From a virus, in IMG/VR virus record IMGVR_UViG_3300025383_001098: a stretch of DNA of 64,000 nucleotides. One strand, given 5' to 3'. Positions 30,620 to 61,971 of this stretch are shown here, piece after piece (positions within the stretch are counted from its first letter, which is position 1; every line of letters starts with the position of its first letter). Under the pieces are notes generated by a model that saw only the letters and a program-made list of their open reading frames with translations, searched no databases and was not told the origin of the DNA. The position numbers and the translations under genes were made by a program.

Positions 30620-30623
30620 TATT

Positions 30624-30690
30624 TGTAGTGCCGATAGTCGGGCTACACATTTAAAGTCATTACTTGCTTAAAAAGGAGAAAACAAATGAC
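30624..30690 (+). promoter_or_regulatory. ROSE-like RNA thermometer leader
   Basis: 5' hairpin, then CUU(G)CUU pairing with the AAGGAG SD and GUCAUU pairing with AAUGAC over the start codon. Confidence 0.65.
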
Positions 30691-31144
30691 ACAATTACAA
30701 ATCCACACCCTTGACTTACCTAACTTTGTGAATCAAATTCACCGTCAGACCATTGGCTTTGATCGCATTTTTGACGAGCTAAATCGCAATTTTGTAAACA
30801 GCCGTGGCGACAATGGTAACTACCCTCCATACAATATCAGTAAATTAGATGATACTCACTATGTTGTAGAAGTTGCTGTTGCTGGCTTTAAAGAGTCAGA
30901 ACTTGACGTAGAACTCAAGGACAATGTTTTAACTGTTAAAGGTGAACAAGAAAAGAAAGAAGTAGAGATTGAATACTTACACAAAGGTATCAGTGCTCGT
31001 AACTTTGTTCGCACTTTCACTTTGGCCGATGATGTAGAAGTACGTGCGGCTACAGTTCAAAACGGTATTTTGGCAATCGCTTTGGAACATGTAATTCCAG
31101 AAGAAAAACAGCCAAAAAAGATTGCTATTACTTTCAAGAAGTAG
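30686..31144 (+). CDS. small heat-shock protein (Hsp20/IbpA-like)
   Basis: IGFDRIF, YPPYNI, EVAVAGF, YLHKGISARNF, NGILAI, PEEKQPKKI. Confidence 0.95.
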   Translation: MTQLQIHTLDLPNFVNQIHRQTIGFDRIFDELNRNFVNSRGDNGNYPPYNISKLDDTHYVVEVAVAGFKESELDVELKDNVLTVKGEQEKKEVEIEYLHKGISARNFVRTFTLADDVEVRAATVQNGILAIALEHVIPEEKQPKKIAITFKK

Positions 31145-39449: not shown

Positions 39450-39633
39450 ACTATTGGTACAAATTGCTGGCGGACTATTTGGATTCTTTGTTGCCTATCT
39501 AATGTATCGTATTGTCGAACGACCATACGAACGTAGCACAGAGGAAGCTCGAATCAAGTACGAAGCAGAGATGGCAGAAATACGCCGACGGAAAGAACAA
39601 CTGCATCGCAATAAAAAGTCAATTTTTAATTGA
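39439..39633 (+). CDS. small single-TM protein
   Basis: GAGGTG SD; hydrophobic N-terminus. Confidence 0.55.
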   Translation: MFIKLLVQIAGGLFGFFVAYLMYRIVERPYERSTEEARIKYEAEMAEIRRRKEQLHRNKKSIFN

Positions 39634-44861: not shown

Positions 44862-45524
44862 TTGTATATACGTCCAACCTAAATCCCACTCCCACGGTTT
44901 CATTGATAATTTAGCACTGGCAGGATCTGCATGGTGATTGTTGTGTAGTTCTTCGCCGCCAATAAAGAATGCCCAGGGTACAATGTTAGTTGAGTAGTCA
45001 TTGGTCTTAGTATTGCGATAACCCCACCAATGCCCGAAGCCGTTAATAACACCTGCGGCCCATAAGGGAATCCAAATCATTTGCCATAGCCAAGGCAACC
45101 AACCCCAAGCCCAGCCAAATATAGCAGAATTAATAAAAAACATTAACACAATGCCTGCAAAGTTAAATGGTGTGTAGATATGCTTTTCAACCCAATCATC
45201 GGGTGTACCTACTCCGTACTGTTCAACCATTTGACGATCTTTAGCGGCATCGGCATAGTAAAATGCACCACCTAAGAATATTTGCCAGATACCGTATACA
45301 CGTGGGCTATGAGGATCACCTTCTCCGTCGGTAAATCTGTGATGTTTACGATGTATAGCCACCCATTGCTTGGTAACCATACCAGTTGTTAACCACAACC
45401 AAAAACGCATAAAGTGTTCTATATAAGGATGAAATGTAACTGAACGATGTGCTTGACTACGATGTAAGTAAAGGGTAACGCAGGCAATGGTGATGTGAGT
45501 CATCACCAGGATGTATATTAACAT
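44811..45524 (-). CDS. membrane acyl-CoA/fatty acid desaturase (DesA/delta9-like)
   Basis: His boxes HRSQAH, HRKHH, HNNHH; GDPHSP; GHWWGYRN. Confidence 0.93.
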   Translation of the reverse strand: MLIYILVMTHITIACVTLYLHRSQAHRSVTFHPYIEHFMRFWLWLTTGMVTKQWVAIHRKHHRFTDGEGDPHSPRVYGIWQIFLGGAFYYADAAKDRQMVEQYGVGTPDDWVEKHIYTPFNFAGIVLMFFINSAIFGWAWGWLPWLWQMIWIPLWAAGVINGFGHWWGYRNTKTNDYSTNIVPWAFFIGGEELHNNHHADPASAKLSMKPWEWDLGWTYIQLLRRFGLAKVRALDTV

Positions 45525-56013: not shown

Positions 56014-57084
56014 ATGACTACATTTACTACTCCACGTATCGGCTTTGCCTGCAAATGGATTGATCGTCCAGACCAAACCGAAGGCATCAAATCTACCGAC
56101 CCCGCTCGTAAATACAATACAGGTACCACTACTGTGGCCTGGTTAAACCGTCAGACACGGGCGATAGCGGAGCAGAAGTTATGGGATTTAATGGTACAAA
56201 ACATCGAGGCAACAAGACTCTTAGTGGAGCGAGTCAGTGAACTCCCAGAGTCTCTACGCATGGTGCGTCTTAGCAGTGATATTCTTCCTTGCTATACCCA
56301 TGGGGACTTTTCTGGTTATTGGATGGAACCTTCTGTTGTTTCATACGCCGAAACCCACTTTAAGAGAGTGGGAGATATTGCTCGGGCTAACGGCGTTCGC
56401 CTTAGTTTCCACCCTGGGCAGTTTACTGTTCTTGCATCAAGTAATCCTGGGATAGTCAATCGTTCAATAGAGGAGTTTGAATATCATGCAACTATGGCAC
56501 GTTGGATGGGTTTCGGAGCCCAATTCCAAGATTGTAAGATTAACGTACACATCTCAGGCCGTGAAGGGCCTGAAGGCATTAGACGTGCCTACAACCGATT
56601 GTCACCTGAAGCTCGTAACTGCATTACCATCGAAAACGAAGAAAACGCCTGGGGGTTAAATGATTGTCTTACCATTTCTGATCTTGTACCTATTGTGCTC
56701 GATATTCATCATCACTGGATACGTGAGGGAGAATACATCCTACCTGGAGACGACCGTGTTAAACGAGTTATTGATAGTTGGCGTGGTGTTCGTCCTACTT
56801 GCCATTATAGCGTTAGTCGCGAAGACGTACTTGTTGGACATGATACATCCAGGTTACCTGAGCATAAGGCACTTCTGGTAGAAGGTTACAAGAAACAGAG
56901 CCTACGTGCTCACAGTGACTTTTATTGGAATCGTGCAGTTAACGAGTGGGCAATGAGTTTTAATCAAGACTTTGATATCATGTGCGAAAGCAAAGGTAAG
57001 AATTTAGCCAGCTTTGCTTTTGCTAAAAGTAAGACGCAAACGCAGGACGAAAATACTGATCGTACCATGCTGTTGACAGCATAA
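56014..57084 (+). CDS. uvsE: UV-damage endonuclease
   Basis: RIGFACK, RLSSDILP, RLSFHPGQF, IENEE, LDIHHH, HYS, RAHSD, MCESKGKN. Confidence 0.93.
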   Translation: MTTFTTPRIGFACKWIDRPDQTEGIKSTDPARKYNTGTTTVAWLNRQTRAIAEQKLWDLMVQNIEATRLLVERVSELPESLRMVRLSSDILPCYTHGDFSGYWMEPSVVSYAETHFKRVGDIARANGVRLSFHPGQFTVLASSNPGIVNRSIEEFEYHATMARWMGFGAQFQDCKINVHISGREGPEGIRRAYNRLSPEARNCITIENEENAWGLNDCLTISDLVPIVLDIHHHWIREGEYILPGDDRVKRVIDSWRGVRPTCHYSVSREDVLVGHDTSRLPEHKALLVEGYKKQSLRAHSDFYWNRAVNEWAMSFNQDFDIMCESKGKNLASFAFAKSKTQTQDENTDRTMLLTA

Positions 57085-58087
57085 GATTTCGATTATGCTC
57101 AACAATTGGTTTCACCTTTTCCAAAATCTCCGCCTGTGGTTGTTGCTCCAACAATTTCACTTGGTCCATAGCCAGGCTACACCGTTTTTCAAAGTCAGAC
57201 ATACTGTCATAACTTTCGTCAATGATGCCGTCAAAGGTTTTAAAGCCTAAATTGCGTAGATTTTGTAACGCACCTTGTCCGCTTAGACAAACAAATAATC
57301 TACTGCCCAGAATGGGTTTGACTGTTTTTTCTGTATAGAAACTATAATGGTTGCTATGATTAGTTTCTGCTATTAAAGTGTAGGCAGTTTGATTGTACAC
57401 GCTTAGTGGTATGATTTGACTTATGCTCATGCGATAGCCATAGTACTTGAATTGTTCAACGGTCCACTCAACCGGTCGATCTCTCTCAAGTCCTTCATCT
57501 TCCCAGACCCACTTATCGGGATCGTCGAAGTTGTTATTGTTAATCTGACCAAGATAACGTACAATATTTTTGGCAGGGTCTAATCTCGCAAATGCAAAAT
57601 CTCTGTGATTTTTCTTTCGACCAAGTAATGCGTCAAAGAAGTAGGGTTTAACGGCATAAGGATTGAGAACATCGAGTGTTTCTGGACGCACAAAACGATA
57701 AAAGTGTACTGTGGTAGTAAACCAATCATAGAATTTATGCACAGGACTGTGATCTAAATCAAAATTAAAATCGCCGCAGATAAAATAACTTACTCGAGGA
57801 TGGTCGTGCCGTTGGACTATTTCAATAGTCCGATCGTGCAATTCACTCATGAGAATAAGAACATGGTCCGCAAACCCTGTTAAATCTGTAATTTCATTAT
57901 CAAATTCAGACCTAATGGGATAGGGCATTTGTAAGCAGGCAATTTTGTATGCGTGTTTACTGTTTCGAAAAGGTTCTAAATTATTGTAGACCGTGAATCC
58001 CGAAAGGCCACATCTTGTGAAATGGAAATGAAAAAGGGCGTTTGTATTTTCAGGTACAAACACCCCTACATCAGTTTTTTGCATCAA
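57023..58087 (-). CDS. putative glycosyltransferase (GT10-like motif), paralogue 4
   Basis: FDALLGRKKNHR, YTLIAET...FYTEKTVKP, LGFKTFDGIIDESYD. Confidence 0.55.
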   Translation of the reverse strand: MMQKTDVGVFVPENTNALFHFHFTRCGLSGFTVYNNLEPFRNSKHAYKIACLQMPYPIRSEFDNEITDLTGFADHVLILMSELHDRTIEIVQRHDHPRVSYFICGDFNFDLDHSPVHKFYDWFTTTVHFYRFVRPETLDVLNPYAVKPYFFDALLGRKKNHRDFAFARLDPAKNIVRYLGQINNNNFDDPDKWVWEDEGLERDRPVEWTVEQFKYYGYRMSISQIIPLSVYNQTAYTLIAETNHSNHYSFYTEKTVKPILGSRLFVCLSGQGALQNLRNLGFKTFDGIIDESYDSMSDFEKRCSLAMDQVKLLEQQPQAEILEKVKPIVEHNRNLMLSTAWYDQYFRPAFASYF

Positions 58088-58333
58088 TTACTTAGTGGCT
58101 TTTTTTGCCTTGGTAGATGCTTTTTTAGCGGCTGGTTTTTTAGCAGCTTGTGTTGTGGCTTTTTTAACTGTTGGTTTTTTAGCAACCTTAGCTACTTCAG
58201 CTACTGCAACCTTGACTTCAGCAACTTCTTCTTTAACGGCTTCAACTACTGTTTCTTTTTTGCTGAATGCTTTGATTAAAGTCCAAGCAACTACGGCTAC
58301 AAGTGCAATACCTACGATTAATGTAAAATCCAT
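58088..58333 (-). CDS. membrane-anchored Lys/Ala-rich (histone H1-like tail) protein
   Basis: AGGAG SD; N-terminal TM; AAKKPAAKKASTKAKK. Confidence 0.7.
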   Translation of the reverse strand: MDFTLIVGIALVAVVAWTLIKAFSKKETVVEAVKEEVAEVKVAVAEVAKVAKKPTVKKATTQAAKKPAAKKASTKAKKATK

Positions 58334-58406
58334 TTTAACTCTCCTGTTTGAATAGATAATATTATTTAGTGATGGCTCGACCCTGAAAACTTTTTCTCCG
58401 AAAAGG

Positions 58407-58435
58407 TTGCAAAATGTTGCGTTGCACAATATAAT
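58407..58435 (+). promoter_or_regulatory. sigma70 promoter with PhaR-type box in the spacer
   Basis: TTGCAA-17-TATAAT; TGCGTTGCACAA at 58418-58429. Confidence 0.6.
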
Positions 58436-58455
58436 CATAAATAAATGTAGCAGTA

Positions 58456-58520
58456 CGTAAGATGCTGAATAGTTCGGGTCTTGCGATAACATTTCGCTTA
58501 ATAAAGGAAAATAAAATGTT
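58456..58520 (+). promoter_or_regulatory. ROSE-like structured leader
   Basis: Hairpin GTAAGA-TGCTGAA-TAG-TTCGGG-TCTTGC, then UUC(G)CUU/AAGGAA and AACAUU/AAUGUU pairing. Confidence 0.55.
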
Positions 58521-58755
58521 CAATTTTAAATCAGTAGTAGACCAAGTAGCAACAGCAACAAAAACACCTTTGACCTACGTTGAAGACAAGAATTTGCGTT
58601 CCAGCTTAGAAGCCGTAGTTGATGCTCAAGCTAAATTTGTAAAAACATTATTTGACACTAACTTAGATTTGTCTAAGCAAGTAGTTGAAAAGGCTAAAGA
58701 ATATGATTATTCTAAGCCATTTGCTGAATTAGCATCAGAGTTATTAGCTAAGTAA
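58516..58755 (+). CDS. phasin-like small helical protein
   Basis: 79 aa amphipathic helix, VVDAQAKFVKTLFDTNLDL; strong codon bias; TGC-N3-GCA operator upstream. Confidence 0.55.
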   Translation: MFNFKSVVDQVATATKTPLTYVEDKNLRSSLEAVVDAQAKFVKTLFDTNLDLSKQVVEKAKEYDYSKPFAELASELLAK

Positions 58756-58772
58756 TCTTAGTTTTAACTATC

Positions 58773-58800
58773 AAAGGGCCTTAATGGCCCTTTCTTTTTT
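58773..58800 (+). terminator. intrinsic terminator
   Basis: AAAGGGCC-ttaat-GGCCCTTT-T run. Confidence 0.85.
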
Positions 58801-58855
58801 GCCTTAATTGAATAAATACTATAAATAACTGTATGCCCCATAGGAGACAAATTTC

Positions 58856-61875: not shown

Positions 61876-61971
61876 TCTCGTAATAAAACTTTAATATTTT
61901 GTATTGCATTGCATGATAAATATCTAAGTAGAAACACTAATATGGTTTTTACTTAGAATAGGAGTCACACA

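Follow-up and report, generated by a model that had tools for sequence, protein, structure and literature searches.

The DNA analyzed here, hereafter the window, is a stretch of 64,000 nucleotides that corresponds to bases 52769-116768, minus strand, in a 127,215-bp IMG/VR virus record with a GC content of ~40%. Since this record is only 35% complete according to CheckV, its size implies that the virus is a jumbo phage. The stretch is present in public runs of freshwater and lake metagenomes, and a search of the isolated phages in INPHARED returned no match, neither for DNA nor for protein. For comparison, we assembled 15 related phage loci of ~6 kb each, resulting in a set of 16 loci with the window included. 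The following features, numbered by their position in the window, are considered below.

30620-31144, plus strand: phage hsp20 gene with its leader (gene at 30686-31144; HSP20 family PF00011, 80.6 bits)
57023-58087, minus strand: gene for a 354-residue protein, co-oriented with the tail gene that follows and without a link to PHA
58088-58333, minus strand: divergent gene for an 81-residue protein (the tail gene) with an N-terminal hydrophobic membrane helix and a Lys/Ala-rich tail; pI 10.1
58407-58412, plus strand: -35-like hexamer TTGCAA, read in the sequence, of which TTGCA is kept in most related loci
58414-58430, plus strand: candidate PhaR-type dyad operator ATGTTGCGTTGCACAAT, with the core TGC-N3-GCA at 58418-58426
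58430-58435, plus strand: -10-like hexamer TATAAT, which follows TTGCAA after a 17-nt spacer
58437-58443, plus strand: ATAAATA box, a candidate phage late-type promoter by its enrichment 5' of genes, present in all 16 loci
58456-58485, plus strand: leader hairpin 1, a predicted fold whose stem has a one-base bulge and whose loop is UAG
58492-58510, plus strand: leader hairpin 2, predicted and ROSE-like, with the ribosome-binding site AAG-GAAA paired to UUUC-G-CUU
58516-58755, plus strand: gene for a 79-residue three-helix protein of a phage-only family (the small gene), with the Shine-Dalgarno sequence AAGGA at 58504-58508
58773-58803, plus strand: intrinsic-terminator-like hairpin with a stem of 8 pairs, 5 of them G-C, followed by the T-run CTTTTTTGCC; hairpin and T-run are placed at 58773-58793
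61905-61922, plus strand: a second, weak TGC-N3-GCA box, TGCATTGCA, located 2 nt before an ATAAATA box and 5' of a gene for a 55-residue protein and a GNAT gene

The original prediction described a TTGCAA-17-TATAAT promoter with TGCGTTGCACAA in its spacer, and this arrangement was confirmed by direct reading of the sequence as well as by a promoter scan, in which 58407-58435 scored 10/12. The 12-mer TGCGTTGCACAA, located at 58418-58429, has zero mismatches to TGCRNYGCASMA, the PhaR consensus of Bradyrhizobium diazoefficiens (PMC6201568); the rhizobial consensus named when the site was first noticed is this published one. The motif of Herbaspirillum PhbF, TG[N]TGC[N]3GCAA (PMC3206438), is matched with one mismatch in the window and exactly in the related loci L004-6, L007, L008, and L010. 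When an extended dyad pattern was used, 58414-58430 was the sole match without mismatches in the window. The candidate operator overlaps the core promoter, as it lies inside the -35/-10 spacer and just before the ATAAATA box, at a distance of about 6-7 nt measured from the end of the 17-mer (58430) or 11 nt measured from the GCA arm. The dyad is placed so as to block either promoter, the sigma-70-like or the TAAATA one.

We then compared the site with chance expectation and with the promoters of true phasin genes. The 12-mer consensus was found once in the 64-kb window, against 0.80 expected, and at least one occurrence was present in 57 of 100 shuffles; the count is thus at chance level and by itself uninformative. 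The shorter pattern TGC-N3-GCA occurred 12 times, against 17.3 ± 4.6 expected from proper shuffles, and an apparent depletion of this pattern in the phage, seen with a rough shuffle, was dropped. What goes beyond chance is the place, the rank, and the conservation of the box. A set of 79 Burkholderiales phasin genes (relatives of Cupriavidus necator PhaP2) served as a positive control, to which five low-GC Burkholderiaceae genomes of 2.0 Mb contributed 12 further phasin genes. TGC-N3-GCA was present within 250 nt upstream in 64 of the 79 Burkholderiales genes, and the 12-mer consensus was fitted upstream in 54 of them, often as TGCRNYGCACAA, which is the 12-mer type of the window. These promoters usually carry two boxes at a distance of 55-59 bp, whereas the promoter in the window has a single box near the small gene and lacks the paired arrangement. 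A 17-nt weight matrix was built from 143 boxes upstream of true phasin genes of the Burkholderiales, and its flanks were conserved as WTGNTGCRNYGCANMAA although they had not been imposed. With this matrix, 58414-58430 obtained the best score (17.9 bits) of the ~254,000 positions on both strands of the 127-kb record, a value that corresponds to only the 13th percentile of true host sites.

The phasin promoters of the low-GC Burkholderiaceae contain elements that are nearly identical to those of the phages, matching them in 16/17 and 14/17 bases. Furthermore, true phasin promoters of this group include the 6-nt-spaced dyad TTGTTGCAATACAGCAA, which compares with TTGTTGCAGTACAGCAA in the related phage locus L002; the accepted TGC-N3-GCA rule may be too narrow for these bacteria. 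In L112, L114, and L115, phasin promoters of this group contained up to three boxes, with 6-nt-spaced forms such as TTGTTGCAATACAGCAA among them. A search for more boxes in the rest of the genome had been proposed; the record contains only one strong site, and two further boxes scored weakly (5.9 and 2.1 bits). The TGCATTGCA box listed above scored just 5.9 bits, and its reverse complement, TGCAATGCAATA, is identical to the promoter box of locus L008. The other weak box, TGCATCGCAATA at 39602-39613, lies in a 736-nt gap between genes and scored 2.1 bits, its 5' flank being off the motif; the low-GC Burkholderiaceae genome L116 has an identical box 5' of one of its phasin genes.

The homologous promoter site ranked first among ~12,000 positions per locus in 8 of the 15 related loci and second in a ninth. 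The TGC and GCA arms of the dyad are kept across loci, while its center changes (GTT, AAT, ACC, or GTC). A good promoter site was missing in 6 of the 16 loci, namely, L002 (where the site is at -37), L011, L012, L013, L014, and L015; the dyad spacing is 4 nt in five of these, and no clear dyad is present in L012. A 6-nt dyad spacing was observed in two loci. The dyad overlaps the -35 hexamer in several relatives and is separate from it in the window and in L004-L008. TATAAT is present in the window and in L002, L004-6, L008, L012, and L015, whereas the remaining loci have TATACT 3' of the TAAATA box. The sigma-70-like hexamers shift between loci around a core formed by the dyad and TAAATA, and the order is the same in all 16 loci: the dyad, 0-12 nt, TAAATA (TAAATT in L010), and the leader. 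The element common to all loci is the TAAATA box; the -35/-10 pair on which the original prediction was built may be real. In silico, there is good support for the operator reading, and host PhaR may bind the site; the first interpretation as a whole is partly supported.

The sequence TATAAATA is the box of T4-type late promoters. In the record, ATAAATA is found at -80 to -15 of 17 genes (1.3 expected) and TATAAATA at the same distance from 6 genes (0.4 expected). The TAAATA box thus appears, by its sequence and position, to be the phage's own late-type promoter. Like the T4-type boxes, (T)ATAAATA is enriched 15-80 nt 5' of phage genes, and it stands between the dyad and the leader in 16 loci; the difference is that here a sigma-70-like -35/-10 pair overlaps the box. 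The promoter of the small gene is composite, with the sigma-70-like pair overlapping the TAAATA core. Gene starts in the window that are preceded by ATAAATA include 6643, 30686, 39788, 58856, 61393, 61972, and 63794.

The 5' leader of the small gene is better conserved than the promoter spacer, and TCGCTTAA...AAGGA is kept in all loci. In an alignment fold of 13 sequences, 9 of the 14 consensus pairs showed compensatory changes, and the fold z-scores of the leader were modest (-1.6 to -2.8). The ribosome-binding site is predicted to be sequestered in an imperfect helix that has a bulged G, in a leader type that is linked to a small heat-shock gene: the hairpin at 30624-30647 in the leader of the phage hsp20 gene is nearly identical to hairpin 1 of the small gene. 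The hsp20 leader also contains the GCUUAA...AGGAG motif, so that a bulged hairpin with a UAG loop and a paired ribosome-binding site are common to both leaders (58452-58518 at the small gene). The hsp20 promoter, in turn, is TTGACA-17-TATAAATA and contains no dyad. The leader resembles ROSE-type thermometers in the pairing of its ribosome-binding site with a U-rich, UYGCU-like stretch that contains a bulged G, in the stable hairpin that precedes this helix, and in its presence on an hsp20 gene. It differs from them in being phage-borne and in its occurrence also on a gene that is not a heat-shock gene; its score against Rfam ROSE_3 (RF02523) was 23.9 bits, short of the 43 bits required for gathering, and melting is a prediction.

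Since the terminator-like hairpin follows directly after the small gene, the transcription unit is monocistronic, as had been proposed. The product had further been called amphipathic, which applies to a moderate degree: its best 18-residue hydrophobic moment was 0.49, a value attained by 11% of shuffles. We retrieved 137 close homologues with 57-84% identity, as well as 54 representative clusters of 63-108 residues. All of them are metagenomic, and many are located on contigs of 100-350 kb. A wider-alignment homologue search retrieved nothing further, and a pattern scan of the GTDB representatives revealed no relatives of the small protein. Scoring of 299 Burkholderiaceae genomes yielded matches only to a helical part of FtsH, which were discarded as spurious. 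The AlphaFold model (pLDDT of 90) contains helices at residues 4-21, 25-62, and 67-78, and the long helix shows a clear heptad pattern.

The small gene had initially been described as phasin-like. The window's 79-residue protein had no phasin match in Pfam, PHROGs, or NCBIfam, and what remains of this description is a set of soft leads. Phasin_2 (PF09361) was the only Pfam family matched recurrently by members of the family (4 of 29 and 5 of 45), every match being below the Pfam gathering cutoff of 24.9 bits. The best relative (P0044) reached 24.0 bits, and others scored 15-20 bits, with 15.3 bits for the copy in L010. These matches followed two registers rather than a single consistent one: in P0044 and P0107, residues 28-74 aligned with positions 22-68 of the Phasin_2 profile, and in P0038, P0171, and the L010 copy, residues 30-62 aligned with positions 55-87. 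The profile-profile comparison with phasins, for which HHpred had been proposed, was run as hhalign: the family alignment (A3) against the 79 Burkholderiales phasins gave a probability of 1.2% (P = 0.045), which is not significant, and the PhaP2 clade gave 0.4-1.0%. An hmmsearch against true phasins yielded scores of at most 11 bits, again not significant. Foldseek retrieved nothing below an E value of 1 from the PDB, and PDB sequence profiles and VIA-align (wide) retrieved designed or generic helical proteins only, with VIA-align Z scores of at most 7.1 and no phasin among the matches listed. The remaining leads are two structural neighbors in BFVD labeled Phasin (E values of 0.037 and 0.48) and the nearest named ESM Atlas clusters, which were Phasin_2 and PHB_acc, both below 0.9; in UniProt, the label Phasin is carried by A0A6J7WGJ6 and A0A6J5LP31. 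A likeness of the N terminus to the MFQNQLNDQIAQAQ phasins of low-GC Burkholderiaceae, noted by eye, did not score and was set aside.

In comparison with Phasin_2 proteins (PF09361/TIGR01841, e.g., C. necator PhaP2), the small protein is likewise all-helical, small, and acidic to neutral, with a heptad-patterned long helix, and the likeness extends to the subthreshold matches of its family members and to the two BFVD neighbors labeled Phasin. The differences are that at 79 residues it does not reach half the size of phasins from Burkholderiales (175-202 residues), that the cutoff was reached by no scanned member, that the matches fall into two registers, and that hhalign gave 1.2%; moreover, with 57-84% identity, the family is conserved to a much greater degree than is usual for phasins. 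Since the scores are subthreshold, the registers are two, and the comparison with real phasins is not significant, we regard the term phasin as a lead and not as a membership.

The divergent 81-residue protein had been likened to PhaF and PhaM because of its tail. The tail is real, with AKKP and AKKA occurring twice each at the C terminus, but the likeness to the Lys/Ala-rich DNA-binding tails of PhaF/PhaM is compositional only: the N terminus is a membrane helix and not a phasin or PhaM domain, no significant family match was obtained in Pfam, PHROGs, or NCBIfam, and the tail sequence drifts among relatives. The tail gene adjoins the small gene, with the divergent order kept and the 354-residue gene alongside, in 10 of the 15 related loci. 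The 354-residue protein, encoded beside the tail gene, shows 41-64% identity in 10 loci and a weak Exo_endo_phos match (E value of 0.0056). On inspection by eye, it also contains a TEK...DES-type stretch reminiscent of glycosyltransferases.

Family searches and the locus neighborhood revealed no PHA-related gene near the small gene. The original prediction had proposed a search for phaC; neither PhaC nor a PhaR DNA-binding domain was found in the phage record and five relatives, one of which is 100% complete (356.9 kb). Since PhaR is encoded neither by the phage nor by these relatives, any PhaR reading the site would be that of the host. A betaproteobacterial two-piece tmRNA (RF01850, 158.8 bits) is located outside the window at bases ~44979-45389 of the phage record (280-690 of L118), which suggests that the host is a betaproteobacterium, one that need not be Cupriavidus. 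The sampled Burkholderiaceae genomes contain PhaR and several phasins, and no RF01850-type tmRNA match above threshold was obtained in them. Polynucleobacter-like Burkholderiaceae (2.0 Mb, 42-47% GC) had been considered as hosts, as their phasin promoters resemble those of the phages, but these bacteria lack the phage's beta-type two-piece tmRNA, and this host claim was therefore dropped.

Of the first interpretation of the locus, the operator has stood, favored by its fit to the consensus, its matrix rank, and its conservation, whereas the phasin reading is a lead and the tail analogy is weak. Our main reading, to which we assign a probability of roughly 0.45, is that the small gene is under the control of host PhaR and a ROSE-like leader and that its product is a minimal-phasin-like granule or aggregate protein. 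In this reading, uncultured freshwater jumbo phages use the small gene to encode an abundant small protein with three helices, of the coiled-coil type, and control of the gene would take place at two levels, transcription and translation. For transcription, the 17-bp PhaR-type dyad, located within the -35/-10 spacer and upstream of the phage ATAAATA late-type box, would permit host PhaR to repress the promoter in PHB-poor cells, and granules would titrate PhaR off in PHB-rich cells. For translation, the ROSE-like leader in common with hsp20 would mask the ribosome-binding site and may respond to temperature. The product would most likely be a helical protein associated with granules or aggregates and acting as a minimal phasin, although phasin homology is not established. 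A fuller version of this reading, which we consider doubtful as a whole, holds that a phage late-type promoter is gated by host PhaR and translation by an hsp20-type thermometer, so that production of a minimal viral phasin would be confined to cells that are rich in PHB, and perhaps warm or stressed, whose granules it would coat or open as fuel for the infection.

Several other explanations have to be weighed. The dyad may be a real operator of another regulator, either a phage protein or another host factor, and the small protein may be unrelated to PHB, for example, a structural or chaperone-like protein of the late or stress phase. The dyad is conserved, but in some relatives its spacing is 4 or 6 nt, which would not be expected to work for a strict PhaR site; no rigorous phasin test of the small protein was significant, the neighborhood is devoid of PHA genes, and the leader in common with hsp20 points to stress control. 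On the other hand, agreement with the motif of true phasin promoters extends over the flanks as well as the core, 6-nt variants almost identical to that of the phage also occur in low-GC Burkholderiaceae phasin promoters, and the one strong site in the record is unlike what is expected for a phage-wide regulator. We consider this explanation somewhat unlikely. A related possibility is that the small protein is a stress-phase helper, co-regulated with hsp20 through the thermometer-like leader and acting on aggregates or membranes, to which a PhaR-type box was added or is incidental. The same hairpin and Shine-Dalgarno-masking helix on hsp20 and the small gene, the weak ROSE_3 match, and a leader conservation that exceeds that of the promoter spacer are in its favor; however, ROSE_3 scored far under the gathering score (23.9 versus 43), the fold z-scores are modest (-1.6 to -2.8), and the conserved dyad, which is missing from hsp20, is left unexplained, so that we judge it improbable.

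The box could finally be a by-product of a TTGCA-type -35 hexamer in an ordinary promoter, and the small protein an ordinary phage protein. The counts in the window are in line with this (one consensus match versus 0.8 expected; 12 TGC-N3-GCA versus 17 expected), and several relatives have the dyad overlapping a -35 hexamer that is conserved in any case. Nevertheless, chance is a very improbable explanation for a site that is the first of ~254,000 positions, falls inside a 30-bp promoter core, recurs at first or second rank in 9 of the 15 related loci, and stands apart from the -35 hexamer both in the window and in L004-L008.

The known system closest to the main reading, control by host PhaR, is the PhaR/PhbF/AniA-phaP repression circuit of PHB-storing proteobacteria, as described for B. 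diazoefficiens (PMC6201568) and for Herbaspirillum seropedicae PhbF (PMC3206438); PhaR of Ralstonia eutropha belongs to the same circuit type (PMC3206438, PMC3570403). The locus shares with it a flanked TGC-N3-GCA dyad over the core promoter of a gene for a small helical protein, and the phage 12-mer is one base away from the phaP4 site TGCGCTGCACAA of B. diazoefficiens (PMC6201568). In contrast to this circuit, the phage gene is viral and the phage encodes no PhaR, its promoter has one box where two, separated by 55-59 bp, are usual, the dyad is located just 5' of a late-type TAAATA promoter, and the product, of ~79 residues, is below the phasin family thresholds; PhaR binding at the phage promoter is predicted.

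What is new at this locus is the dyad-TAAATA arrangement in 16 of 16 loci, together with a ROSE-like leader that masks the ribosome-binding site and is common with hsp20. A search of the full-text literature retrieved no published account of a virus gene wired to a host carbon-store sensor with a second, RNA-level switch. If host PhaR truly controls the promoter, the small gene would be such a case, a virus gene wired to the bacterial sensor of stored carbon and equipped with an additional switch at the RNA level. Given the spread of the family in lakes, the effect could then matter for the death of, and carbon release from, PHB-storing freshwater bacteria.

The small-protein family is widespread across lake metagenomes and also occurs in metatranscriptome libraries from lakes. 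In four of these RNA libraries, contigs were found over the small gene (at 58472-58776 and 58492-58846) as well as over the tail gene, a coverage to which DNA carry-over may contribute. The segments 57800-58070 and 58340-58471 were uncovered by these contigs, gaps that are no guide to transcript ends. A relative whose protein starts with MFTFDTVVD was present in three runs (X16, X21, and X23) and matches the window in no more than the start codon and the final 35 nt of the leader (58486-58520); its contig in X16 had the highest depth (20.8) among the RNA-library contigs compared.
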